Assembly: GCA_050125095.1 (NCBI GenBank)
Contig: JASFEA010000098.1
Location: forward strand, 1 to 11,700
DNA length: 11,700 bases
Origin: a bacterium
GTDB lineage: Bacteria; Arandabacterota; Arandabacteria; Arandabacterales; JALGWA01
Reading direction: 5' to 3'
Made by a program: the position numbers and the translations under genes
Part shown: positions 1-11,700 of the stretch, one piece after another
Layout: every line of letters starts with the position of its first letter
Numbering within the stretch: the first letter of the stretch is position 1
The notes under the pieces: model-generated
Database searches by the model: none
Told to the model about the DNA's origin: nothing
What the model saw: the letters and a program-made list of their open reading frames with translations, nothing else

Positions 1-1
1 C

Positions 2-2263
2 GTTATCATATCCGACCTCAATGGAAATATACAGCAGGTCAACCGCTCAGCCATAGGCATGCTTGGTTATGAGAGCAAGGAAGAACTGCTGGGCAGCCAC
101 GCTTATCTATGCATAGCCGAGAATGACCGGCAGCGCGCGTCGGAGGAAATGATGCGCGCGCTTAAGATGAATGAGCGCATCGTGGACGTTTACAGCTTCC
201 TTAAGAAGGGCGGCGGCACTGTCTCCTGCCATGTCGATGTAGATCTCTTGAGAGACAAAGACGGAAACGCCGTGGGATTCGTCATGCTCGCGAGAGACGT
301 GACTGAAAGCCGGGAAAAAGAGAAGGCCATGCAGGATGACGTCAGTAAGTATAAGAGCCTGCTCGAGGGTCTCGAGGAGGCTGTTTTCCGAGTCAGCCTG
401 CCGATAGGGAAGTACGACTATGTGAGCCCGGCGGTGAAACGTGTATTCGGGTACACCGGGGAGGAGTTCCTCAAGAATCCGCTCCTTATGAGGAAGCTCA
501 TCCATCCGGACCACGCGGGCCGTTTCAATGAGATGTGGAAGGACCTGATCCAGGGGCATATACAGCCCAGCTATGAATACAAAGTAATCAACCGTGACGA
601 AAGGGAGAGGTGGATACTCCAGAAGAACCGCCGCGTGTTCAATGAGGCGGGCAAGGTGCTTGCCATTGAGGGGGCCTGGAGGGACATCACCGAACAGAAG
701 CAGGTGGATGACTCGATCCGCGAGAACGAGATACAGTTCAGAATGATGTTCAATGCTTCTAGCATCGCTCTCGAGTGCTACGATGCGAACCGGACGCTTG
801 TGCATGCCAATCCCGCCTGCTTTGAGCTCTTCGGCGCAGACGATCTGGGCATGCTTAGCAAATTGAACCTGCTCACGCATGAAAGCGTCCCCGATTATGT
901 GAGGGAAAAGATCAATACCGGCGAGGCCGGCACCTGGACGGCCAATCTGGACTTCGCCGCCCTGAGAGCAGGCGGCGTCCTGGTAGGCGGCCGGTCGGAC
1001 GCTGCGGAGTTTGAGATAACCGCATGTCCTATAGATGCTGGTTACGGGGCTCCCGGCTGGTATCTCGTGGAAATTCACAGTGCCTGTGCGAAGCAGGAGG
1101 GCAGGGCGCAGGTCATGCAACCTGGCAGTATTGATTCGGCGGCAAGGCTGTGCAGGGCCATAGCCGAAGACTTCAATGACGCCCTCACCGGCATCATGGG
1201 CTACAGCGAACACCTTTCCGGCGTACTGGCCGACGACGAATCATTGAGCAAAGAGGTCGACGAGATTCGGAAGGCGGCGGAGTCAGCCGTCGCGCGTACG
1301 AGACAGCTGCTGACTTTCTCGCGCGCAGCGGCGCTCAAGTCCATGCCGCTGGATCTCAACACCGTAATCGCCCAGTGTCAGGATGAAATCAAGGAAACCC
1401 TGGGGGAAGACAAGAGACTTGAAGTGAAACTCGACCGTTCCATGGGCGAGGTACGGGCGGACAGGGATCAGATTGAGACGATACTGCTTAATCTCGCTGA
1501 GAACGCCTGTGAAGCCATGAATCCGGGCGGTACGCTGAGAATCGAAACCACGGCAATTAACCTGGATGGTGAGCAAGAAGCGTCTCTCCAGGACCGCAAA
1601 TCGGGACATTATGCGCGTCTGACCGTCTCCGATGACGGCAGAGGTATGGACGAGAATGTCCAGGGCCGCATCTTCGAGCCCTTCTACACGACCAGGGACG
1701 GCAAATCGGGGATGGGGCTGTCGGTGGTCTACGGAAGCGTAAGACAGCACAGCGGGTATATAGAGTTCTCAAGTGAAGTGGGCAAGGGGACTACCTTCGA
1801 TCTGTATTTCCCGGCCCAGGTTGCCAAGCGCAGGAAGAGCAGCAGAGAACCCGCGGGATCGGCCGGGCTTCATGGTAGCGGAGAGAAGATCTTGCTGGTG
1901 GAGGATGATGAAATCGTGCGCACGATGGCGGCCAAGGTCCTGAGGGAAAGAGGGTATGTCGTATCCGCGGTCGAGAGCGCTTCCGAAGCCAAAAAGGAGT
2001 TCGACGAACGCCAGCGTGACTTCGATCTCATCTTCTGCGACATCGTACTTCCCGATGGCAGCGGCACGGATCTGGCCGAGGAATTGCATTCCCTGAAGCC
2101 CGACGTCAAGGTCCTGCTTACAAGCGGGTACACCGACAGGCAAACTCAGGCGGCTGAAATCGCCGATACGGACTTCCCTCTTCTTGAAAAGCCATATGCG
2201 CTTTTTGATCTGCTGACCGCGATCAAAGACTCACTTGGCCAGCCGGTCGAGGCCGAGATCTAG
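2..2263 (+). CDS. PAS-domain hybrid sensor histidine kinase/receiver (CckA-like architecture), 5'-truncated, degenerate H-box
   Basis: Frame is open from position 2 (VIISDLNGNIQQVNRSAIGM, a PAS start), so the true start is upstream of the window. It has PAS/PAC repeats (YDYVSPAVKRVFGY...IHPDH...RDITEQK), a HisKA-like AIAEDFNDALTGIMGY, HATPase boxes (NLAENA, VSDDGRGM, IFEPFYTT, GMGLSVVYG) and a receiver domain (LLVEDD, CDIVLP, TSGY, KP). Stop is TAG at 2261-2263. Confidence 0.92.
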   Translation, partial: VIISDLNGNIQQVNRSAIGMLGYESKEELLGSHAYLCIAENDRQRASEEMMRALKMNERIVDVYSFLKKGGGTVSCHVDVDLLRDKDGNAVGFVMLARDVTESREKEKAMQDDVSKYKSLLEGLEEAVFRVSLPIGKYDYVSPAVKRVFGYTGEEFLKNPLLMRKLIHPDHAGRFNEMWKDLIQGHIQPSYEYKVINRDERERWILQKNRRVFNEAGKVLAIEGAWRDITEQKQVDDSIRENEIQFRMMFNASSIALECYDANRTLVHANPACFELFGADDLGMLSKLNLLTHESVPDYVREKINTGEAGTWTANLDFAALRAGGVLVGGRSDAAEFEITACPIDAGYGAPGWYLVEIHSACAKQEGRAQVMQPGSIDSAARLCRAIAEDFNDALTGIMGYSEHLSGVLADDESLSKEVDEIRKAAESAVARTRQLLTFSRAAALKSMPLDLNTVIAQCQDEIKETLGEDKRLEVKLDRSMGEVRADRDQIETILLNLAENACEAMNPGGTLRIETTAINLDGEQEASLQDRKSGHYARLTVSDDGRGMDENVQGRIFEPFYTTRDGKSGMGLSVVYGSVRQHSGYIEFSSEVGKGTTFDLYFPAQVAKRRKSSREPAGSAGLHGSGEKILLVEDDEIVRTMAAKVLRERGYVVSAVESASEAKKEFDERQRDFDLIFCDIVLPDGSGTDLAEELHSLKPDVKVLLTSGYTDRQTQAAEIADTDFPLLEKPYALFDLLTAIKDSLGQPVEAEI

Positions 2264-2442
2264 GGGAATGCGGGGCTGCGTGTCCGGAATAGGCCGCGAT
2301 CACTGTGTAATAGACCTCCCGGGCACCTATGTTGTTCTTCAGCAGGCCGGCTAAATGCCGATTTCTTATATATAGCGAACTTTGCGGTGATGCAGCAGTT
2401 CAGAGATGATTGAACGCCAAAGACCATGGTGGGGGGCACACA

Positions 2443-3207
2443 ATGGACAATCTGGATACAAACCAGGCTCTGGCGGAATTCCAGGAGGAGAGATCCGCCG
2501 AGGAGAGGATCGAGCAGGCCAGAATGCAGCGGATGCTCGATGAATGCGGTACGGAATACGCGAAGATGAAGAAGAATATACGCTCATGGGGATTCTGGCT
2601 GGTGGGAATAGGAATCGTGAGTATGGTTCTCTCATTCCTGCTGGACCCGTCATGGGGGCTCATGCTCATGGTTGTGGGCCTTTCCTCTTTCTATTTCTGC
2701 GAGTCATCCATGTTCGTTGTCTACGGGTCGATACTGGCCTGGGCTGCCGTCTCGAATCTCATGGCGGGGACGCTCTGGGCCGTATTCGCTGTATTCCAGG
2801 CCATTCTCGCATTTAAAGTATTCCGGCAGTACGGGAAGTGGCGCAAGGTTGAGAAGACCTATAGATATCACCACAAGATGGGGCGCGTCAATACGCCTCC
2901 CACTCCTGAGAGGGCAGCCAGGATCTTCCCCTGGCTGAGCGCGATTCTGTCGATCGCATCGCTCGCGACGCTGCTTGGCGTGGTGGGCGGTATGGCTGTC
3001 AGCCCCGTTGTCGAAGAAGACCTTGCGGTTATGACGGGCCTGGATTGGGCGGCGATCTTCGCCGTGAATCTCGGGGTGCTGGGCCTGGCCCTTGGAATCG
3101 CCTCACTGCTCTCCAGATACAAGCAGAAGCCGTCCAGCGTGGCCGGAGTCGTGATCGGGGGCCTGGTGCTTGTATTCACGATCGGCGCCATGGTCGCGGC
3201 CGTTTAG
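2443..3207 (+). CDS. Hypothetical polytopic membrane protein (C-terminal part DUF4190-like)
   Basis: ATG at 2443 follows a G-rich RBS-like tract; the ORF track starts at TTG 2410. A charged N-terminus is followed by about 6-7 hydrophobic segments. The C-terminal LGLALGIASL...SVAGVVIGGLVL resembles the DUF4190 pattern. Confidence 0.75.
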   Translation: MDNLDTNQALAEFQEERSAEERIEQARMQRMLDECGTEYAKMKKNIRSWGFWLVGIGIVSMVLSFLLDPSWGLMLMVVGLSSFYFCESSMFVVYGSILAWAAVSNLMAGTLWAVFAVFQAILAFKVFRQYGKWRKVEKTYRYHHKMGRVNTPPTPERAARIFPWLSAILSIASLATLLGVVGGMAVSPVVEEDLAVMTGLDWAAIFAVNLGVLGLALGIASLLSRYKQKPSSVAGVVIGGLVLVFTIGAMVAAV

Positions 3208-3267
3208 AGGCGGGTCGCAGGACCCGAAATCCACCCCGGGGCCAGACTACTGTGGCCTACGAGCCGC

Positions 3268-3331
3268 GGCCCCGTCGGGTGTGCATTTCAAGACCTGGCC
3301 CCGTCGGGTGTGCATTTCAAGACCTGACCCC
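3268..3331. repeat. Perfect 29-bp tandem duplication plus partial third copy, REP-like
   Basis: GGCCCCGTCGGGTGTGCATTTCAAGACCT occurs at 3268-3296 and 3297-3325, followed by GACCCC at 3326-3331. There is no spacer between the copies. Confidence 0.9.
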
Positions 3332-4167
3332 TACTGGAGGGCAGCAAGCAGCTTTTCCGCGCTTTCCCGCAGTAGTTCTATGTAGGATTGGCTCTCGGGG
3401 TATCTTTTCAGTACGACCCTCGTCGCGCCGATCTCATCGGCTATCCTCTCGCCTGCGTCCGGGCCTCGGTGGAAATCGTCGACCACCAGCCGGACGCCGT
3501 TCCGCTCGCCGACCTCGATAAGGCGGGCGGTCTCGCCGCGCGTGAGGTCGTCGGGACTTCCATAGGTTCCTATGATGTCGAATCCCATGTAGTCGAGAAA
3601 ACCGGCCTGCGCATCCGCGCATATGACTCGCGCCTCGTCGAGCCTCAGCATCGACGCGCACAGGTCCTCTGCCTCAAGCGCCAGCCTCGACCGGTAGTCG
3701 TTGCGGTTGAAGCGATACAAGACTTCTGCTTCGGGGTCCCTGCGCACCAGCGCCTCGGTGACGCTGTCGGCCGCATCGAGATGGTAGTAGGGAAGCATAA
3801 GGTCGGCCGCGATGCCGGTAAAGGCCAGATTCTCCTGCGTCTTCACGGCCGCGCTCATCCGGGGCGCCCACTTCTCGTAGCCGCTCATGATGACAAGGTC
3901 GGCGCGGGAAGCGGCGTCGATTTGTCCGGGGCCGGGCTCGAAGTTCTCGGGGAGGGCATCGTAGGGGACGATGGAGGTGGTCTTGACTCTGTCACCGCCG
4001 ATCTCTCTGACTATTGAGCCGAGCATGGTCGTAGAGGTCACAATATTGAGCTCGGTTTCCCGCCCTTCCCTCTGGCAGCCTCCGGCGAAGGTCAGGCAGG
4101 CGAGTCCCCCGAGACAGAGCGCCGCGATGCAGCGCGACAGCCTTGTGTCCGGTTTCATTCGGGGCAT
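3331..4167 (-). CDS. Metal ABC-type substrate-binding lipoprotein, ZnuA/TroA (cluster A-I) fold, atypical ligand set
   Basis: Signal peptide with lipobox-like FAGGC; NIVTSTTMLGSIVREIGGDRV; FEPGPGQIDAASRADLVI..GYEKW; EALVRRDPE...YRFN; C-terminal SYIELLRESAEKL. Alternative start is ATG 4158. Confidence 0.85.
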   Translation of the reverse strand: MPRMKPDTRLSRCIAALCLGGLACLTFAGGCQREGRETELNIVTSTTMLGSIVREIGGDRVKTTSIVPYDALPENFEPGPGQIDAASRADLVIMSGYEKWAPRMSAAVKTQENLAFTGIAADLMLPYYHLDAADSVTEALVRRDPEAEVLYRFNRNDYRSRLALEAEDLCASMLRLDEARVICADAQAGFLDYMGFDIIGTYGSPDDLTRGETARLIEVGERNGVRLVVDDFHRGPDAGERIADEIGATRVVLKRYPESQSYIELLRESAEKLLAALQ

Positions 4168-4172
4168 CTCTG

Positions 4173-6017
4173 CTATTCCCCCAGGTCGTAAGTCACACCG
4201 ACAAGAAAACGCCGCCCGGGCATTCTGTAAAGCCCTGTCTTGCCCCCCGGCACGGACGTGTATATATCGTATTCTTCGTCGGTGATATTCTCAATGGAGA
4301 AGAATGCATCGAATCCGGCCGCGACGTAACTCGAGAGACGCGCATTGAGGACAAGATAGTCGTCGATCCTCTCCTGCCGGTCATCAGCGGCGTAGTAGTC
4401 ACCGACATACTGGAGGCTGCCGAGCAGAGTGAACCGTCTTATATAGACAATGCCCGCGACGTCCAGCTTGTCACCGGGCCTGCCCGCCGTGTTGCGGCCG
4501 GGGTCGAGGTAAGCATAAGAGATCCGGGATTCCATCGAGGTATGCGGCCTAAGGCTGAGCGACGCTTCGGCGCCCGAGAATTCTATCTCGCCGACGTTCT
4601 CGTAAACCGGCTTGTTACCGTGCCCCTTGTGCGGCACAAGCTCAATGAAGTCCTGGCCGTCTATGCGGAATACGGAGGCGGACAGCCTCGCTGCGCTTGC
4701 TACGCGATGCGTGAAGCCGAGCTCGAAGCTCCAGATCGTCTCCGGGCCGAGTCCGCTGTTGGAAGTCTCGAACATAAAGAGCTCGTCTATCTGCGGCGAC
4801 CGGAATCCACCGGACACGCTTCCCCTGAGGGTGGTGGCGTCGGTGACGTCATAGACTATTCCCAGATGCGGCGCGGGTGTGGTTCCTGAGATCTCATCTA
4901 TGTTTATCCTGAGCCCGGCGGTGGCCACGGCGACCTCCTTGAGGAAGAACTGGGCCAGGCAGTAGAAGCCGTATTCGTATTTGCTCCACTGGCCCGGGTC
5001 GGGGCTGATCACCTCGCCGCGCTGATGCCTGAAGTCGAGGCCGCCGTTCAGAAGTGTCATCTCGCCGATGAAGCGTGTCTGGTAGGCCATCAACCCCATG
5101 TACTTGTCTTTGGAGCGCCAGCCGTCGGAGAATTCGTAGTCTCCTGATTCCACATAGGTCTTCAGTGTGGACTTGCCCCCTCCGAATCGCGACGAGACCT
5201 CAAGGTCCACTGTCCCCCTTGTGTAATCCGTCCATGCGTCAGACACCGTTTCCGGCGGGTCGCTGGACGGGGCCGGTTCCTCCTTGTAGCCGTTGTAGTA
5301 CTTGGCCAGAAGCGCGACATTGGTCCTCCCGGCCCTGCCCGTCACCTTGGCCAGGAAATCGGTGCCCCTGTACTCAGAGTGGGGCAGATGGCCGTCAGAC
5401 TGGCGCCGGTCGACGCTGAGCACATAGCCGAGCCGGCGGATCCTGGCCGAATTGAACGCGCTCAGCTTATAGGTATTGTAAGAGCCGTATGTGGTGTTTG
5501 CGCGGAGGGCAAAACCCGTCGACGGGGGAGAGGTCACGATATTGACAACGCCCCCCAGGGCGTCCGAGCCGTAGATTACGGAACCGGGGGTGCGGACGAG
5601 TTCGATCTGGTCGATATCGGCGACGGTGAGTCCCTGCGTGAATGTCGCTCCCGTCAGCCCGGACTTCACCGGATGCCCGTCCATGAGGATCATAACCCGC
5701 CTGCCGGTATCACCCAGCCCTCTTATGGAGATATCGGCCTGGCCGAAGTCACCGGTCTGTTCGATGAAGACGCCGGGTAAGTAACCCACAGCGGCTGTGG
5801 CCGAGTTCGCGCCGTTCAGCATTATCTCATCGCGGGTGGCGACGTCCACGGACGGCGCGACGCTGCCGAGCGGCAGGTCTATTCGCGTGGCCTTAACTTC
5901 GATTTCTTCCACGCTGTAGACTTCCAGCGTGTCCTGTGATTCGGCGGCGGCCAGGGAGAACGCAAGAGACAGTATAACGGGGAACATGCCTGCAGCCGGC
6001 ACTCTGCTCGATCCCAT
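4173..6017 (-). CDS. TonB-dependent outer membrane receptor (BtuB/CirA-like size)
   Basis: GGAGG RBS, signal peptide, TonB-box-like DTLEV/EEIEVKATR, plug motifs (YLPGV, ISIRG, IELVRTPGSVIYGSDALGGVVNIVT), barrel motif GFRSPQIDELF and C-terminal IENITDEEY...PGRRFLVGVTYDL. Confidence 0.95.
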   Translation of the reverse strand: MGSSRVPAAGMFPVILSLAFSLAAAESQDTLEVYSVEEIEVKATRIDLPLGSVAPSVDVATRDEIMLNGANSATAAVGYLPGVFIEQTGDFGQADISIRGLGDTGRRVMILMDGHPVKSGLTGATFTQGLTVADIDQIELVRTPGSVIYGSDALGGVVNIVTSPPSTGFALRANTTYGSYNTYKLSAFNSARIRRLGYVLSVDRRQSDGHLPHSEYRGTDFLAKVTGRAGRTNVALLAKYYNGYKEEPAPSSDPPETVSDAWTDYTRGTVDLEVSSRFGGGKSTLKTYVESGDYEFSDGWRSKDKYMGLMAYQTRFIGEMTLLNGGLDFRHQRGEVISPDPGQWSKYEYGFYCLAQFFLKEVAVATAGLRINIDEISGTTPAPHLGIVYDVTDATTLRGSVSGGFRSPQIDELFMFETSNSGLGPETIWSFELGFTHRVASAARLSASVFRIDGQDFIELVPHKGHGNKPVYENVGEIEFSGAEASLSLRPHTSMESRISYAYLDPGRNTAGRPGDKLDVAGIVYIRRFTLLGSLQYVGDYYAADDRQERIDDYLVLNARLSSYVAAGFDAFFSIENITDEEYDIYTSVPGGKTGLYRMPGRRFLVGVTYDLGE

Positions 6018-6033
6018 TAAGAAACGCCTCCCG

Positions 6034-6729
6034 TCAGGTCCGCAAGATCATGTAAACGCCCGCCGCAATGATAAGAACTCCGCATACCTTCCTCAAAACG
6101 CCCACGGCCCGGGAGCCGGAGGTCCAGTTGAGATAGTCCTGCACCACTTCAGTGAATGTCCCGGCCGCCACGATAACGGCGGCATGTCCGACGCCGTACA
6201 TCCCGATCAGGAGCATGGCGTAGGGGATATTGGTGCTGCCGAGCGACAGTGTAACCCCGAGCATGGGGGCCATGAAAGCGAACGTACACGGTCCGACCGC
6301 GATTCCGAAGACAATGCCGAGAGTGAACGCCGCCGCCGCCCCCCGCTTCGAATGGACCTCGCCGCCGGGGCGGGGCAAGGGGAGCGGTATTACTCCCAGG
6401 AAGTGAAGACCGATGACAAAGAAGACAGCTGCCACTACGTAGGTTATGTTGGCGCCAAGGTCCCCGAGCATCCTTCCAAGGGCGGCAGTGATGGCGCCGA
6501 CCGCTCCGATGGTCACCAGAATACCGACCGCGAAGAAAAGCGAGAGGCGAAAGGCTCTACCGGCCGCAGCCGTTCCCTGCTCACCGATGAAACCGATGAT
6601 CAGGGGTATGCTGGCCAGATGACAGGGGCTCAGCACGACGCTGAGCACGCCCCAGGCGAACGCCGCCGACATAGCCACGGGAGGCGTCCCGGCCACCGCC
6701 TCGGTCAGTGTCGTGAAGAGGCTACCCAT
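6034..6729 (-). CDS. ccdA: CcdA / DsbD transmembrane-domain disulfide interchange protein
   Basis: About six TM segments with both catalytic Cys motifs (LSPCHL, GPCTF). It overlaps the upstream thioredoxin gene by 8 nt. Confidence 0.9.
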   Translation of the reverse strand: MGSLFTTLTEAVAGTPPVAMSAAFAWGVLSVVLSPCHLASIPLIIGFIGEQGTAAAGRAFRLSLFFAVGILVTIGAVGAITAALGRMLGDLGANITYVVAAVFFVIGLHFLGVIPLPLPRPGGEVHSKRGAAAAFTLGIVFGIAVGPCTFAFMAPMLGVTLSLGSTNIPYAMLLIGMYGVGHAAVIVAAGTFTEVVQDYLNWTSGSRAVGVLRKVCGVLIIAAGVYMILRT

Positions 6730-7177
6730 CGGGAGGCTCCACCCCCATCTCTTTGAGCTTCTCTATAATCGTCTCCTTGGGGAGGAATCCCTCATGCCGC
6801 CATACCTCGTTGCCCTCGGCGTCGAAAAAGACCTGGGTCGGCATGACCCTCATTCCGTACTGTTTGACAGCTTCGGGTTTATCCCCCACGTCGATAATCT
6901 CGATAATAAGCCTTCCTCGGTACTCATCCTTGAGCTCCGCAAGAATCGGGGCCATCATCTTGCACGGTATGCACTCACCTTTCCCGAGGTCCACCAATCT
7001 GGGAAGAGCGGCCCTCTGGTCGACGACGCCGGACACGGCCCTTCCCGGGGTTGCGTAGGTGGCTACGGTATCGGTCTGTGCCGCCTTAATGCCCGATTCG
7101 TCGGTTGTCTCGCGGCCGCATCCTGCGAAAAGGCAAGCGGCTATGAGCAGAAGCGGCATGATGGTACCTGCCTTCAT
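6722..7177 (-). CDS. Exported thioredoxin-family lipoprotein (CIPC)
   Basis: Lipobox LFAGC, DLGKGECIPCKMM active site, cis-Pro motif VMPTQVFFD and RHEGF. ATGA overlap with the upstream gene. Confidence 0.9.
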   Translation of the reverse strand: MKAGTIMPLLLIAACLFAGCGRETTDESGIKAAQTDTVATYATPGRAVSGVVDQRAALPRLVDLGKGECIPCKMMAPILAELKDEYRGRLIIEIIDVGDKPEAVKQYGMRVMPTQVFFDAEGNEVWRHEGFLPKETIIEKLKEMGVEPPDG

Positions 7178-7404
7178 GAGATCAACTCCTTGATCTCCTC
7201 GACCGACGGCACCTTGCCGGATATTTTTACCTCCCCGTCTATTGCCACAGCCGGCGTCATCATCACGTTGAATTCCATGATGGACTTGAGGTCCTCTACT
7301 TTCTCGACCTCCGCCGCGACTCCGGTCTCGCCTAAGGCCTTCCGGACGTTCTCATAGGTCTTGTTGCATTTGGGGCAGCCTGTGCCCAGCACCTGTATTC
7401 TCAT
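7174..7404 (-). CDS. Small redox-active disulfide protein, MTH895/TM0996-like (Thioredoxin_3), CPKC
   Basis: MRIQVLGTGCPKC...VMMTPAVAIDGEVKISGKVP, preceded by an AAGGAG RBS. Confidence 0.92.
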   Translation of the reverse strand: MRIQVLGTGCPKCNKTYENVRKALGETGVAAEVEKVEDLKSIMEFNVMMTPAVAIDGEVKISGKVPSVEEIKELIS

Positions 7405-7529
7405 TGGGCTCTCTCCTTCTCAATCTCGATGATGTGCCCTGGCGACGGCGCCCGTCCGGCCGCGCGTCTCGCGCGGTTTCCGGCCGGCATCTGCCCGGCG
7501 CCTGCTTTCTCTGTGAATACTTGTTTCAT
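7401..7529 (-). CDS. Candidate 42-aa small ORF
   Basis: MKQVFTEKAGAGQMPAGNRARRAAGRAPSPGHIIEIEKERAQ*. It has a GGGAG RBS upstream, and its TGA overlaps the next gene's ATG (ATGA). It fills the only sizeable gap in the operon. No recognisable homology. Confidence 0.35.
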   Translation of the reverse strand: MKQVFTEKAGAGQMPAGNRARRAAGRAPSPGHIIEIEKERAQ

Positions 7530-7548
7530 GCGGTTCTCCCCGGCCCCG

Positions 7549-8847
7549 CTATCCCCAGAAAGTCCCGAATATCTTGCCGGTCACTGTCGCCATGATGACG
7601 ATAAGACCCAGGAAAACCAGCGTCTTCCTGGTTCCCATGATGCTCCTTATTACGAGCATGTTGGGAAGCGATACGGCCGGCCCGGCGAGCAGCAGGGCGA
7701 GCGCCGGGCCCTTCCCCATGCCCGCTCCCAGAAGCCCCTGCAATATGGGGACCTCCGTCAGCGTGGCGAAATACATGAGCGCGCCGGCTACGGACGCGAA
7801 CAGATTCGACTGAATGGAGTTGCCGCCCACGAGTCCTGCTATGTAGCGCGATGGTATGAGCCCCTCATGTCCGGGACGCCCCAGGAGCGAGCCGGCTATG
7901 AGCACGCCGACAAGGAGTAGAGGAAGCATCTGCCTGGCGTAGGTCCATGTCGATGAGAGCCAGTCCCGGCCCTCTTCTCCGTCCCTCCACAGCAGCACCG
8001 AGAAGGCCACCAGGCCCGCCGAGAACGGCACCAGCGGATTATCGCGTACGACGAGGGCCGCTGCCAGCACAAGCGCGCCGGCCGCGGCAATATATAGAGT
8101 CTTAAGATCGAGCCAGAACTTTAGGATTACAGCCAAAGCAAATGCCAGACCCGCGGTTATTATCCACTTATAGGAGAAGATAAGTTCCCAGGCGCCTGAG
8201 CCGCCTGCGGGGCGGGCCCAGTTGGCGAAGACCAGAATGGCGATCATAGCCGCGAAGTAGAGCGCGGTCTTATAGAGCGGCCTCGTCTCCTCGACGCTGA
8301 GCTCTGGAGCAGCTTCGGCCCTTTTGAGCTCTTCCTTCCTGAAAATCAAGTGCATGAGGAGCCCGATTACTATACTGAATACGACGGCGCCCACCGCGCG
8401 CGCCACTCCCATCCGGGGGCCCAGCACTTTGGCCGTAAGCACTACCGCCAGCACGTTTACCGCCGGCCCGGCGTACAGGAATGTAGAGGCCGGTCCCAGC
8501 CCTGCGCCCCTCTTGTATATCCCGGCGAACAGCGGAAGCACCGTGCAGCTGCACACGGCCAGTATTGCCCCCGCCACGGACGCGACGCTATAGGCCAGCG
8601 CCTTGGCGGCCCTGGGTCCAAGGTACCTGAGAACGGAGGCCTGCGAGACGAATACGCTGATGGCGCCGGCGATGAAGAAGGCGGGGATCAGGCAGAGAAT
8701 GACGTGCTCGCGGGCGTACCATGTGGCGAGGGCGATGCCCTCGAATACGAAGTTGTCGAACTCGATTCTCTCGAGCGGGAGGTAAAAGAAGACCAGGAAG
8801 ACTGCGATCATCAGTATAAGATGCCTGTATTCACTGTTGCCGGGCAC
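7549..8847 (-). CDS. ArsP_1/DUF318 family permease
   Basis: YAREHVILCLIPAFFIAGAI, ILAVCSCTVLP, GAGLGPASTFLYAGPA, MYFATLTEVP and LLLAGPAVSLP motifs. GTG start with a GAGGTG RBS. Confidence 0.92.
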   Translation of the reverse strand: MPGNSEYRHLILMIAVFLVFFYLPLERIEFDNFVFEGIALATWYAREHVILCLIPAFFIAGAISVFVSQASVLRYLGPRAAKALAYSVASVAGAILAVCSCTVLPLFAGIYKRGAGLGPASTFLYAGPAVNVLAVVLTAKVLGPRMGVARAVGAVVFSIVIGLLMHLIFRKEELKRAEAAPELSVEETRPLYKTALYFAAMIAILVFANWARPAGGSGAWELIFSYKWIITAGLAFALAVILKFWLDLKTLYIAAAGALVLAAALVVRDNPLVPFSAGLVAFSVLLWRDGEEGRDWLSSTWTYARQMLPLLLVGVLIAGSLLGRPGHEGLIPSRYIAGLVGGNSIQSNLFASVAGALMYFATLTEVPILQGLLGAGMGKGPALALLLAGPAVSLPNMLVIRSIMGTRKTLVFLGLIVIMATVTGKIFGTFWG

Positions 8848-8880
8848 TTTTCACCTCGCTCGGTCCGCCTGGCCGCCGCG

Positions 8881-9177
8881 CTAAAGGCGTTCCTTGAGAA
8901 CCCTGGAAGCACAGGAGAAGAAGTTGATTACGCAGGGAGTGACGAGCCTGTAGAATACCGCGTTCCCGCGGCGCTCGTCGTCGACGACTCCGGCCCCTCT
9001 GAGTATCGCCAGATGCTTGGAGACCGTCGACTGGTCTGCTCCTATCAGGCGCACCAGTTCCCCGACCTGGCATTCGCCCTCGCTCAGGCGGTCTACAATC
9101 ATCAGCCTGGTCTCATTGGCCAGAGCCTTCATGATGCGGGCCTGCTGTTTGTATTTGTCTCTGGTTTTCATCTTCAT
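8881..9177 (-). CDS. ArsR/SmtB family transcriptional repressor
   Basis: KALANETRLMIV...ECQVGEL...DQSTVSKHLAILRGAGVVDDERRGNAVFYRL winged HTH, with C-terminal PCVINFFSC. Start is probably ATG 9177 (AGGT upstream) or 9171, not 9315. Confidence 0.95.
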   Translation of the reverse strand: MKMKTRDKYKQQARIMKALANETRLMIVDRLSEGECQVGELVRLIGADQSTVSKHLAILRGAGVVDDERRGNAVFYRLVTPCVINFFSCASRVLKERL

Positions 9178-9205
9178 GGTCAGACCTAAAGGCATATTAG
9201 AACTG

Positions 9206-9231
9206 TATGCAATTATGACAATAATGCCATA
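9206..9231. promoter_or_regulatory. Putative ArsR operator (imperfect inverted repeat)
   Basis: TATGCAATTAT-GACA-ATAATGCCATA; 9 of 11 positions are symmetric. It overlaps the predicted -10 of arsR and resembles the 12-2-12 ArsR/SmtB operator geometry. Confidence 0.7.
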
Positions 9232-9246
9232 TTGAATAAAAGTCAA
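9212..9246 (-). promoter_or_regulatory. Putative sigma70-type promoter of the arsR operon
   Basis: Minus strand TTGACT (9246-9241), 17 bp, TATTGT (9223-9218). An alternative extended -10, TGtCATAAT, lies at 9220-9212. The region is a sharply AT-rich patch in a GC-rich window. Confidence 0.65.
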
Positions 9247-9331
9247 TATATACTTATTATGCCTGGTTGGTAATCCCAGGGTGTGGAGGGGGGCGGGGAC
9301 GGTGACCGGGCCCACAGGCCCCCGATCGCCG

Positions 9332-9562
9332 TCAGAGTAGAGACTTTATCTCGGCGACGGTGGGCACCCTCCCCACGAATTTTACTTCGCCGTCTATGGC
9401 CAGGGCGGGCGTGACATATACGCCGAATTCGCGTATGGCGCCCGGGTCTTCAACGAGCTCGACTTCCGCTTCGATGCCGAGGTCTCGGATGGCATCCTCA
9501 GCGTTCTTCATGACCTGGTCGCATTCCGGGCACGCCATACTCAGTACCTGTATTCTTGCCAT
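9332..9562 (-). CDS. Second MTH895/TM0996-like small thioredoxin (CPEC)
   Basis: MARIQVLSMACPECD...GVYVTPALAIDGEVKFVGRVP, 76 aa from ATG 9562 with a GGGAGG RBS. The ORF-track extension to 9670 is unlikely to be real. Confidence 0.9.
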   Translation of the reverse strand: MARIQVLSMACPECDQVMKNAEDAIRDLGIEAEVELVEDPGAIREFGVYVTPALAIDGEVKFVGRVPTVAEIKSLL

Positions 9563-9644
9563 ACCGCTTCCTCCCTTTCGGAGATTGTCGCACGATTGAC
9601 GCCCCGAATCCAGAAGGATCGGCGCCGGCGCCTGCTGTTTCCCG

Positions 9645-9673
9645 TTGACAGAGCGTCCGGCTTGGGGCAAGAT
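9645..9673 (+). promoter_or_regulatory. Possible promoter for the phosphatase/peptidase unit
   Basis: Perfect TTGACA at 9645-9650, 17 bp, then a weak -10 (CAAGAT). Confidence 0.35.
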
Positions 9674-9683
9674 ACTGCTTGAG

Positions 9684-9709
9684 AAGGGGGGGCATCCCCC
9701 TTATTTTTT
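9684..9709 (+). terminator. Intrinsic terminator-like hairpin in the 5' leader of the phosphatase gene
   Basis: AAGGGGG-GGCAT-CCCCCTT followed by ATTTTTT, ending 5 nt before the GAGGAG RBS. Confidence 0.5.
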
Positions 9710-9731
9710 GCCCTGAGGAGATAAACCGGCC

Positions 9732-11483
9732 TTGGCAACAGACAGAAAATCGCTCGAAATCCTGCTTGAAGCGGGCAAGATCCTGAACTCGACGCTCGAG
9801 GTGCGCAGTCTCGTATCTCTCGTTTACGACCTCGTGCTGGCTTCGGTGGACTGCGAAACGTGTTCGCTCGGGAGACTGAGAGAGAAAGGCAATGAGATAC
9901 GCGTGCTGATGGCTTTCGGCAAGCAGGGGGATGAGGTGGAGGATCTCATGGTGGATCGCGGCGTAGGAATCATGGGCACGGTTGTCGAAACCGGTGAGCC
10001 CCTCATCCTCAACAAGCCCGAGGACATAAAGAAGTATGAGGACCGGATCGACGCAAGATTCGGTTTCGAGAAGCGCTCCTGCGTTTCGGTACCGCTCCTC
10101 AGGGGCGGGAAGGTCATCGGCGCGCTCGAGGCCATCAACAAGGAAGACGGCAACTTCACCGGCGGCGACGTTGAGATGCTGACAGATCTCGCCGAGCAGA
10201 TCGCCATCGCCGTGGACAACTCGCGGCTTTATGAGCGTGTGCAGAGAGAGGTCAGAGAGAAGGAGCTTCTCTACGAGGTCGGCCAGCGCATCAGCTCGTC
10301 CCTTGACCTTGAGGAAGTGCTCGACCTCATCCTGGACTGCCTGGGCGAGGTGGTGGCGTTCGCGGCCGGGGGCATCTACGTGGTAGATCCTGACATGCGC
10401 GAGATAGCGAGCCTGGCGATCACGGGGTATGACCCCGGCATGGAAGAGAGGGTGCAGCTCAAGTTCGGTGACGGCATCGTGGGCTGGGTGGCCAAGAACC
10501 GGGAGCCCGCTGTCGTGGGCGACGTCAGCAAGGACTCGCGCTACATCAGCGCGCGCAACGAGACCCGTTCGGAGATCGTCGTTCCGCTTTTCGCCGACGA
10601 CAAGATAATCGGGGTGATCAATCTCGAGAGCGACGAGGCCGGGGCGTTCACCGAAGACGACCTCGAGCTCATCAAGGCCTTCGGCTCCCAGGCCGCAGTG
10701 TCGCTGGAGCGGGCGAAGCTACACGCTCAGATTCTGGAGCGCCGGAAACTGGTGGACGAGCTCGAGGTGGCCAGGCATATACAGAAGACTTTCCTGCCCG
10801 ACAGGATACCCGACATACCTGGATACGACCTGAGCGCCATCAACATCCCTTCGGAGGCCGTGGGCGGAGACTACTACGACATAATATTCATATCGGAAGG
10901 GCAGTGGGGCCTCACCATCGCCGACGTCTTCGGCAAGGGAGTTCCCGCAGCTCTGGTCATGGCGAGTTACAGGGCGAGCCTCCTGGCCGAGATACGGAAC
11001 AACTACAAGATCAATGCGATCTTGCGCAAGGTCAACAGGCTCATCTGGGAGAGCGTGGAGCCCGAGCGCTGCGTGACGGCATGCTATGGCGTGCTGGACG
11101 CCGAGTCGGGCGTCTTCACGTATTCGAACGCCGGGCACTGGCCGCCGATTATCATCGGCAGGAAGGGAATAAGGCATCTGGACAAGGGCGGCATTCTTCT
11201 CGGAGCAATAGACGGGGCGGAGTACCGGGAGGAGAGGGTGTACCTGGAACCGGGCGACGTCGCCCTCTTCTTCACAGATGGACTGACCGAGGCCGAGGAC
11301 CTGTACGGCGAGGCTTTCGGCGAAGAGAGACTGATTGAGACAGCTAAGGGGCTGGTCGATAAGCCCGGCTCCGAGATCGTGAAGAGCATTCACCAGGTCG
11401 TGTGGGATTTCTCCGGCGGACATCTCGGCGACGATTTCACGCTTCTGGTTCTGAAGGTTAAGGAGGAGAGGCATGTTCGGTAA
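9732..11483 (+). CDS. GAF-GAF-PP2C (SpoIIE/RsbU-like) Ser/Thr phosphatase
   Basis: Two GAF domains (GIMGTVVETGEPLI...VPLLRGGKVIGALEAINK...FTGGD; GIVGWVAKNREP...VPLFADDKIIGVINLES) and intact PP2C motifs GGDYYD, IADVFGKG, NAGH, FTDGLTE and DDFTLL. TTG start with a GAGGAG RBS. Confidence 0.95.
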   Translation: MATDRKSLEILLEAGKILNSTLEVRSLVSLVYDLVLASVDCETCSLGRLREKGNEIRVLMAFGKQGDEVEDLMVDRGVGIMGTVVETGEPLILNKPEDIKKYEDRIDARFGFEKRSCVSVPLLRGGKVIGALEAINKEDGNFTGGDVEMLTDLAEQIAIAVDNSRLYERVQREVREKELLYEVGQRISSSLDLEEVLDLILDCLGEVVAFAAGGIYVVDPDMREIASLAITGYDPGMEERVQLKFGDGIVGWVAKNREPAVVGDVSKDSRYISARNETRSEIVVPLFADDKIIGVINLESDEAGAFTEDDLELIKAFGSQAAVSLERAKLHAQILERRKLVDELEVARHIQKTFLPDRIPDIPGYDLSAINIPSEAVGGDYYDIIFISEGQWGLTIADVFGKGVPAALVMASYRASLLAEIRNNYKINAILRKVNRLIWESVEPERCVTACYGVLDAESGVFTYSNAGHWPPIIIGRKGIRHLDKGGILLGAIDGAEYREERVYLEPGDVALFFTDGLTEAEDLYGEAFGEERLIETAKGLVDKPGSEIVKSIHQVVWDFSGGHLGDDFTLLVLKVKEERHVR

Positions 11484-11700
11484 GAAGTCACTCGATTTTC
11501 TAAAACGATTCGTTGACACCCCGAGCCCGTCGGGCTTCGAGCGCCCCGCCCAGGAAGTGTGGCGCGAGTACGTTTCCGCTTTCGCGGACGAGGTGCACTG
11601 GGATGTGCAGGGCAATTCCATCGGTGTCGTGAACAGAGGCGGAAGCCCCAGGATAATGCTGGCGGGCCATTGTGACGAGATCGGCTTCATGGTGAAATAC
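11473..11700 (+). CDS. M42 family metallo-aminopeptidase, N-terminal fragment (3'-truncated by window)
   Basis: Not in the ORF track. Translates as MFGKKSLDFLKRFVDTPSPSGFE...DVQGNSIG...PRIMLAGHCDEIGFMVKY, with an AGGAGG RBS. It overlaps the phosphatase gene end by 11 nt. Confidence 0.92.
   Translation, partial: MFGKKSLDFLKRFVDTPSPSGFERPAQEVWREYVSAFADEVHWDVQGNSIGVVNRGGSPRIMLAGHCDEIGFMVKY

Follow-up and report, generated by a model that had tools for sequence, protein, structure and literature searches.

A thioredoxin-containing ars cassette fused to a TonB-dependent receptor and a ZnuA-fold binding protein in one lineage of Arandabacterota

We analyzed an 11,700-nucleotide stretch of bacterial DNA (the window; JASFEA010000098.1, positions 1 to 11,700), which is the entire 11.7-kb contig C98 of a metagenome-assembled genome of the phylum Arandabacterota (GCA_050125095.1, here G000; 3.35 Mb, 60% GC, 91% complete). 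The minus strand carries a set of seven co-oriented genes, encoding in order an ArsR-family repressor, a DUF318 permease (ArsP), a mini-thioredoxin (Trx76a), an exported thioredoxin (Trx151), the membrane protein CcdA, a TonB-dependent receptor and a ZnuA-fold binding lipoprotein (SBP) (Table 1). We report that the last two genes, whose relatives stand under NikR-type control, are joined to this ArsR-headed cassette in two sister species, and that both proteins have changed residues that are otherwise invariant in their families while remaining under selection. A preliminary description, made from the sequence alone, had proposed an envelope-spanning cassette. The gaps it gave between the seven genes (33, 144, -4, -8, 16 and 5 nucleotides) were identical when recomputed from the coordinates of the open reading frames (ORFs), and its seven family assignments all score above curated cut-offs (Pfam/NCBIfam). 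An eighth co-oriented gene, absent from its list, encodes a second mini-thioredoxin (Trx76b) upstream of arsR and has a counterpart in the sister species G002 (79% identity). As had been stated, the window holds no family match to arsC, acr3, arsB or arsM in Pfam and NCBIfam profile searches and no cobalamin riboswitch, a search of Rfam at E ≤ 1 giving a single, chance-level snoRNA match. A second, independently assembled metagenome contig of 355 kb (L082) matches the entire 11,700 bases at 99.2% identity and has its genes in the same order; the junction between ccdA and the receptor gene is therefore genuine DNA rather than a mis-assembly.

Table 1. Features of the window, with coordinates, strand and supporting matches
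Feature	Coordinates	Strand	Match or remark
PAS-PAS hybrid histidine kinase with receiver domain	59-2263	+	operon flank, syntenic in G002
265-codon ORF between histidine kinase and SBP	2410-3207	+	no Pfam/NCBIfam match
Two tandem copies of a repetitive extragenic palindromic (REP)-like repeat, directly after SBP stop	3268-3331	-	
ZnuA-fold (cluster A-I) binding lipoprotein (SBP)	3331-4167	-	PF01297
TonB-dependent receptor	4173-6017	-	Plug + barrel, tree
ccdA-receptor junction, 16 nucleotides, GGGAGG ribosome-binding site	6018-6033	-	
CcdA/DsbD-type membrane electron shuttle	6034-6729	-	PF02683
Trx151, exported thioredoxin lipoprotein	6722-7177	-	PF00085
Trx76a, cytoplasmic MTH895/ArsE-type mini-thioredoxin, CPKC	7174-7404	-	TIGR00412
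42-codon ORF in ArsP-Trx76a spacer, probably no gene	7401-7529	-	no family match
DUF318/ArsP_1 permease (ArsP), 432 aa	7549-8847	-	PF03773
ArsR/SmtB-family repressor	8881-9195	-	HTH_5, NF033788
AT-rich arsR promoter region	9194-9273	-	promoter-like matches
Trx76b, MTH895/ArsE-type mini-thioredoxin, CPEC, 5' of arsR promoter	9335-9562	-	TIGR00412, PF13192
Double-GAF SpoIIE/PP2C phosphatase	9732-11483	+	operon flank, syntenic in G002

The repressor matches HTH_5 (PF01022) with 55 bits (cut-off 22) and NF033788 with 91.2 bits (cut-off 55), and scores under the cut-offs of the BigR and TsoR equivalog models. CVC is the classical As(III) site in the DNA-binding helix of such repressors, as in R773 ArsR. 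This canonical motif is not found in the window's ArsR, whose DNA-binding helix reads GECQVGEL, with a single cysteine. An alignment of 11 orthologues keeps C88 and C95 in 11/11 and C42 in 10/11, a three-cysteine pattern that would fit either an S3 metalloid site or a thiol switch. The start codon first proposed, a TTG at 9246, is possible, yet orthologues start near 9177/9171. The -35 element of the arsR promoter, TTGACT, lies at 9246-9241, its TTGAC being followed after 17 nucleotides by the -10 element; a palindrome, TATG-N10-CATA (9214-9231), overlaps the -10, occurs once in the window and is a candidate ArsR operator. Both TTGAC and the palindrome are kept in five genomes of the order.

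The permease is of the long (~430 aa) type, carries a CSC motif and matches ArsP_1 over residues 41-428 with 244.3 bits (cut-off 32.3). Both mini-thioredoxins match the MTH895/ArsE model (Trx76a with 114.9 bits, Trx76b with 81.9 bits; cut-off 62) and have the CxxC motifs listed in Table 1. By these model matches the mini-thioredoxin resembles ArsE, of the ArsEFG system reportedly described by Chen, Zhang and Rosen in 2019, and the permease resembles the ArsP of Campylobacter, said to have been described by Chen and colleagues in 2015. Trx151 combines a thioredoxin domain (45.5 bits, cut-off 23.5) with a lipobox, LFAGC, and the active site CIPC, while CcdA matches DsbD_TM (39 bits, cut-off 27.1) and has membrane cysteines in SPCHLA and GPCTFA. 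Taken with established knowledge of CcdA/DsbD, the cysteine motifs and the lipobox suggest a relay from Trx76a through CcdA to Trx151, which would bring reducing power to the periplasm.

The 144-nucleotide gap between ArsP and Trx76a had been described as filled by a short ORF. The frame is indeed open, but its standing as a gene is not borne out by any family match; tblastn finds no counterpart in G002, where the spacer is unrelated, and the ArsP-Trx76a spacers of relatives, 52-144 nucleotides long, are likewise unrelated. Mini-thioredoxin copy number and position vary among cassettes: G008, G011 and G017 carry an additional, divergent copy between ArsP and the main one (L096 4060-4284; L097 3395-3613; L100 3259-3483), and the window and G002 place their extra copy 5' of arsR instead. 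We considered whether the 42-codon frame could be a remnant of the additional mini-thioredoxin found in the same spacer of those three genomes, and rejected this for want of significant similarity.

The cassette itself is widespread in the phylum. Among 18 genomes compared (G000 included), 15 have ArsP orthologues (63-82% identity), and wherever the contig permits their neighbors are ArsR, ArsP, one or two copies of the mini-thioredoxin, a thioredoxin and CcdA. This gene set was described from ars operons by Castillo and Saier, who, in the accessible part of their paper, left the function open (PMC2963123). The window shares with their set the ArsR, the ~400-aa ArsP with an insertion between transmembrane segments 4 and 5, the MTH895-type mini-thioredoxin, the thioredoxin and CcdA. 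Unlike that set, it has no arsC, acr3, arsB or arsA nearby and has two uptake-type genes appended after ccdA. Such appended genes are not reported in the accessible part of that paper, nor did we see them in nine other cassettes (L023, L024, L081, L096-L101), in which the five-gene set ends at CcdA: no receptor or SBP was found at E ≤ 1e-4 in the 1.5-9.4 kb of sequence downstream, and the genes after CcdA differ from cassette to cassette (an opposite-strand nitroreductase, methyltransferases, TPR, TetR and others).

The two appended genes have relatives of their own. The receptor matches Plug (PF07715, 77 bits) and the TonB barrel (PF00593, 115 bits) and has an N-terminal signal-like sequence; it does not score as a BtuB, reaching 132 bits against TIGR01779 (cut-off 599.7), with no upstream riboswitch in Rfam. 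The SBP matches the ZnuA family with 83.8 bits (cut-off 29) over residues 42-275 and retains a signal peptide and lipobox, and scores far under the cut-off of every NCBIfam equivalog for cluster A-I. Receptor orthologues occur in 5 of the 18 phylum genomes, G000 counted. In G002, assigned to the same genus (receptor 73% identical), the arrangement is the same from the GAF-SpoIIE gene to the histidine kinase. The receptors of G004, G012 and G007 are 46-50% identical to that of the window, and here the operon is another one: nikR, receptor, SBP, ATP-binding cassette (ABC) ATPase and ABC-3 permease in G004 and G012, the G012 contig stopping before the permease, and the same set in G007, but with nikR on the plus strand between the GAF-SpoIIE gene and the receptor.

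A scan of one genome per species yielded 45 receptor-related loci, spanning Latescibacterota, WOR-3, Elusimicrobiota, Zixibacteria, Poribacteria, Fibrobacterota, Krumholzibacteriota and others. Only one of them, that of G002 (L028), has cassette genes (ArsR, ArsP, thioredoxins, CcdA) near the receptor, whereas nikR adjoins it in 21/45 (20 by tblastn, L031 by Pfam search). Downstream genes were counted at loci with an SBP match, the remaining 23/45 being left out: besides L028, the SBP lies next to the receptor at 21 loci, followed by the ATPase in 20 of them and the ABC-3 permease in 17; three of the remaining SBP loci without a permease end at contig ends, and at L063 nikR, receptor and SBP are followed by 9 kb with no ABC genes. 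Upstream of the receptors lies a NikR-type inverted repeat that in many cases overlaps a TTGACA/TATA promoter. Under a strict pattern (GTRNYAC-N12-15-GTRNYAY, within 600 nucleotides upstream of the receptor) this box is present at 31/45 loci, and 3 of the 14 misses have less than 150 nucleotides of upstream sequence; the strict pattern occurs nowhere in the window or in L028. Judged by box and neighboring regulator, the receptor family is a NikR-regulon member across phyla, and a NikR-type regulator points to nickel or a nickel complex as the ancestral substrate.

Side by side with this, the scan brought out a widespread operon consisting of nikR, NikR box, receptor, SBP, ABC ATPase and ABC-3 permease (L011 7060-11881; L013 2213-7058; L029-L068). 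Its cluster A-I SBP, found in several candidate phyla, has an invariant CPGH and no NPH histidine. Going by its sequence features, this NikR-box operon of ZnuABC architecture may be a class of nickel importer not yet described; a literature search gave us no description of one, and the cluster A-I papers retrieved appear, by their titles and abstract openings, to deal with Zn or Mn. A further NikR-box-like palindrome, GTACTAC-N12-GTAATAC in a TTGACA promoter on contig C145 (L078 6300-7677), was rejected as a candidate: downstream of it come a small ORF, a GntR regulator and an ABC ATPase, and it is probably a GntR/YtrA-type operator.

Set against these relatives, the fused lineage has lost most of the operon around the receptor and SBP. 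The ccdA-receptor junction, 16 nucleotides in the window and about 22 in G002 with a GGAGG-type ribosome-binding site in both, takes the place that nikR, a promoter and the NikR box fill in relatives; the REP-like repeats occupy the position, after the SBP stop, where relatives have the ABC ATPase gene. Searching the window for remnants of nikR and the ABC genes (tblastn, E ≤ 10) gave chance-level matches only. Two points of the preliminary description thus hold, namely that receptor and SBP lack the usual uptake-type control and that no ABC permease or ATPase is present at the locus. The operon-type ABC-3 permease, 67% identical between G004 and G007, which both also carry a paralogue at 32-34% identity, was not found in G000, G001 or G002, where a paralogue of 29-32% identity is the only one.

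The retained proteins have changed as well. Among the 21 other SBPs, 33 columns reach a conservation of 90% or more; 19/33 are kept in the window and 22/33 in G002, compared with 75-100% in the others, each scored by leave-one-out. Lost are C72, G74 and H75 of a CPGH motif kept by all 21 other SBPs, N231, Q233 and S234 of a likewise invariant DNLQSG motif (DDFHRG in the window, DDLHMG in G002), N255, F256 and H95; the CPGH and DNLQSG motifs are replaced in both species. A pairwise alignment to MntA (5hx7) matches CPGH to the DPHE loop and DNLQSG to the ETSVD loop. In solved cluster A-I structures the first and fourth metal ligands are found on these two loops. At the site of DPH, which together with NPH and HxAF/ExAF marks the loops of the canonical His/Asp/Glu ligands and which is seen in the genome's own ZnuA, the window SBP reads LPENFE; NPH is absent from the whole SBP family, falling in a gap of the alignment to MntC. 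In the receptor, 86 of the 96 columns that are at least 90% conserved among 40 other orthologues are kept in the window and likewise in G002 (others, 91-100%). Changes common to both species are R93Q, M119S, C124A/G, R137Q and G143T in the plug and H294Y, N411D and N430S in the barrel. Three of the residues replaced, M119, C124 and H294, show no variation among the 40 other receptors.

Such losses could mean that receptor and SBP, left behind by a broken nickel operon, have no function and are heading for loss. The regulator, the ABC genes and several invariant residues are indeed gone, no receptor was found in G001, and the SBP has the highest dN/dS (ratio of nonsynonymous to synonymous divergence) of ten genes compared. 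This dN/dS, estimated between G000 and G002 by the Nei-Gojobori method, is 0.245 for the SBP, 0.116 for the receptor and 0.07-0.19 for eight neighboring genes, rough values since dS is saturated (0.9-1.8). All of these lie far below 1, and both receptor and SBP are clearly under purifying selection. Moreover, both frames are uninterrupted in two species between which 26% of receptor residues and 45% of SBP residues differ, and signal peptide, lipobox, ribosome-binding site and most conserved receptor columns are retained, which makes decay very improbable.

The fused arrangement is the derived one. In a receptor tree from a quick IQ-TREE run, the window and L028 form one group (SH-aLRT 100) with a stem of 0.61, nested, at 100, among the NikR-linked L029, L030 and L031. 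The receptor-SBP pair was linked to the cassette at none of the 44 other receptor loci and behind none of the nine other cassettes; because it is never so linked outside the two sister species, we regard the arrangement as a lineage-specific fusion. The preliminary description was right that receptor and SBP are fused to an ArsR-headed cassette, but the condition by which it would itself be refuted, a pair never linked to this cluster in relatives, largely applies: two operons that are otherwise separate have been joined in one lineage, and this is no conserved envelope-spanning system. A scan of metagenomes with patterns of the derived SBP returned one same-species contig and two distant ZnuA-like matches as its only hits.

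We propose, as the account we hold to be fairly probable, a recent operon fusion with a re-specified receptor and SBP that are now probably read from the arsR promoter. In the common ancestor of G000 and G002, the cassette ended up immediately in front of the receptor and SBP genes of a NikR-controlled nickel-uptake operon. From the locus, nikR disappeared together with its promoter and box, as did the genes for the ATPase and the permease. The retained receptor and SBP exchanged family-invariant Cys, His, Met, Asn and Gln residues and thereafter stayed under purifying selection. Spacing and the loss of the receptor's own promoter suggest that read-through from the conserved arsR promoter now supplies the transcript of both genes, in which case they would be derepressed by the thiol-reactive signal of the three-cysteine ArsR. 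They would still act as outer-membrane uptake gate and periplasmic capture protein, presumably for a ligand other than the ancestral nickel species. The loss of regulator and transporter, the coordinated replacement of soft-metal-type residues and the purifying selection together fit re-specification better than either decay or an unchanged nickel function.

Besides the roughness of the dN/dS values, several observations weigh against this account. Co-transcription of receptor and SBP with the cassette is suggested by spacing. The preliminary description had seen no room for a separate promoter; the junction is indeed only 16 nucleotides, yet inside ccdA there is a weak promoter-like match (9/12; 6096-6068), whose -35 is not kept in G002 but which may still act as an internal promoter. 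The fusion is known from two species and one same-species contig, and may thus be young and neutral with respect to selection. In G001, assigned to the same genus and 83% complete, the gene behind CcdA (64% identical to that of the window) is a TetR gene, and a search for a receptor orthologue gave none. L063, with nikR, receptor and SBP but no adjacent ABC genes, indicates that the loss of ABC genes alone is no proof of a new role. The rate has accelerated only modestly: measured against three outgroups, the SBP is 28-31% identical vs 33-39% for its sisters (6-8 points lower), and the receptor 34-41% vs 37-45% (2-5 points lower).

One form of neutrality deserves separate weighing, in which receptor and SBP still scavenge a divalent metal, nickel or some other, and pass it in trans to another ABC-3 transporter, the cassette linkage being a deletion accident and expression coming from read-through or a weak internal promoter. 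G000 does retain one ABC-3 permease with an ATPase, the ZnuBC-like pair on contig C54, and SBP residues common to both species (D231, H233, acidic 74-77, H129) would, judged by residue type, suit a harder metal. The genome also has [NiFe]-hydrogenase genes (three matches to large subunits) and TonB (seven TonB_C matches), and the genus retains nikR next to a second receptor. However, the C54 permease is 29-35% identical to the lost one and has, besides its own ATPase, its own canonical ZnuA with DPH, NPH and FHP, and a simultaneous loss of CPGH from the SBP and of C124, M119 and H294 from the receptor would be unexpected if the nickel function were conserved. We therefore consider neutral juxtaposition quite unlikely.

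The nikR just mentioned adjoins, in G002, a second and different TonB-dependent receptor (L077, G002:C157 1125-3648), behind which lies a homologue of inosine-uridine nucleoside hydrolase. No NikR_C match was obtained in G000, whose orthologue of that second receptor (C55 17755-19146) is cut by the contig end exactly where nikR would come; the missing nikR thus probably reflects a gap in the assembly, and NikR-controlled nickel uptake by another route most likely persists in the lineage.

The preliminary description had gone further, suggesting an integrated importer in which a metal(loid) or thiol-reactive compound enters through the receptor, is captured by the SBP and is reduced in the periplasm by the relay, with the DUF318 permease taking the place of the ABC permease and ATPase as inner-membrane carrier. 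That three genomes of the genus lack the cognate ABC genes while selection retains the SBP, that ligand-type residues of receptor and SBP changed on the same stem branch as the fusion, and that one promoter region and tight junctions are shared, all speak for it. Against it, the cassette works without receptor or SBP in nine other genomes. We know of no cluster A-I SBP that docks to a non-ABC permease, which likewise weighs against an importer of this kind. The NCBIfam models nearest to the permease are efflux families, although it stays under the cut-offs of these equivalogs (SO_0444 Cu/Zn, 110 bits, cut-off 300; SaoE, 102, cut-off 325), and characterized ArsP_1 members are described as efflux proteins in the accessible part of a published account (PMC9144182). 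Co-location makes the DUF318 permease a possible inner-membrane partner of the SBP; a predicted complex of ArsP with the mature SBP scored 0.00 in two runs without controls and counts neither way. On balance, an integrated importer seems unlikely. We are just as doubtful of the broader idea that a captured and re-tooled nickel receptor and SBP, the thioredoxin relay and the DUF318 permease form a new kind of inducible trans-envelope pathway for a thiol-reactive metal(loid) species, with an ABC-type SBP serving a non-ABC permease.

The locus can also be compared with characterized metal-uptake systems. FrpB4 and FecA3 of Helicobacter pylori are, in the accessible text, NikR-regulated TonB-dependent nickel receptors (PMC11247825). 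By NikR control, the relatives of the window receptor resemble them, being nickel-repressed outer-membrane uptake genes behind a NikR box and often beside nikR; the window receptor differs in having neither box nor nikR neighbor and in the loss of family-invariant residues. The pairing of a receptor with a ZnuA-fold SBP resembles that of ZnuD with ZnuABC as given in the part of the source available (PMC2895646), the two corresponding to outer-membrane and periplasmic steps of metal import. Unlike ZnuD/ZnuABC, the window locus has no ABC-3 permease or ATPase, its SBP lacks the DPH and NPH histidine ligands, and its regulator is of the ArsR type rather than a Zur, Fur or NikR. Word searches of the open-access subset found no publications describing this fusion.

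The surroundings of the locus add some observations. An orthologous GAF-SpoIIE phosphatase gene adjoins the cassette in G005 (L102, G005:C56 3-3593) and nikR with the receptor in G007 (L013 126-2776). Cassette and receptor module may thus once have flanked the same site, judging from gene order, and a simple deletion would then suffice to fuse them. The REP-like unit behind the SBP is ~29 nucleotides long (GGTCTTGAAATGCACACCCGACGGGGCC), dispersed and intergenic; its 16-base core matches at 108 places in the genome, and a similar unit sits between nikR and the receptor in G007. The 265-codon ORF at the histidine kinase end may not be a gene, as in G002 only its last 37 residues are recognizable.

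Taken as we propose, the locus would be a clean natural example of operon rewiring: deprived of metal-starvation repressor and inner-membrane transporter, an uptake module came under a stress-type repressor and exchanged residues of ligand type, yet selection has maintained it. If receptor and SBP serve the cassette, the substrate of the receptor should be that of the cassette, and would give a first handle on the ArsP/CcdA/thioredoxin set.

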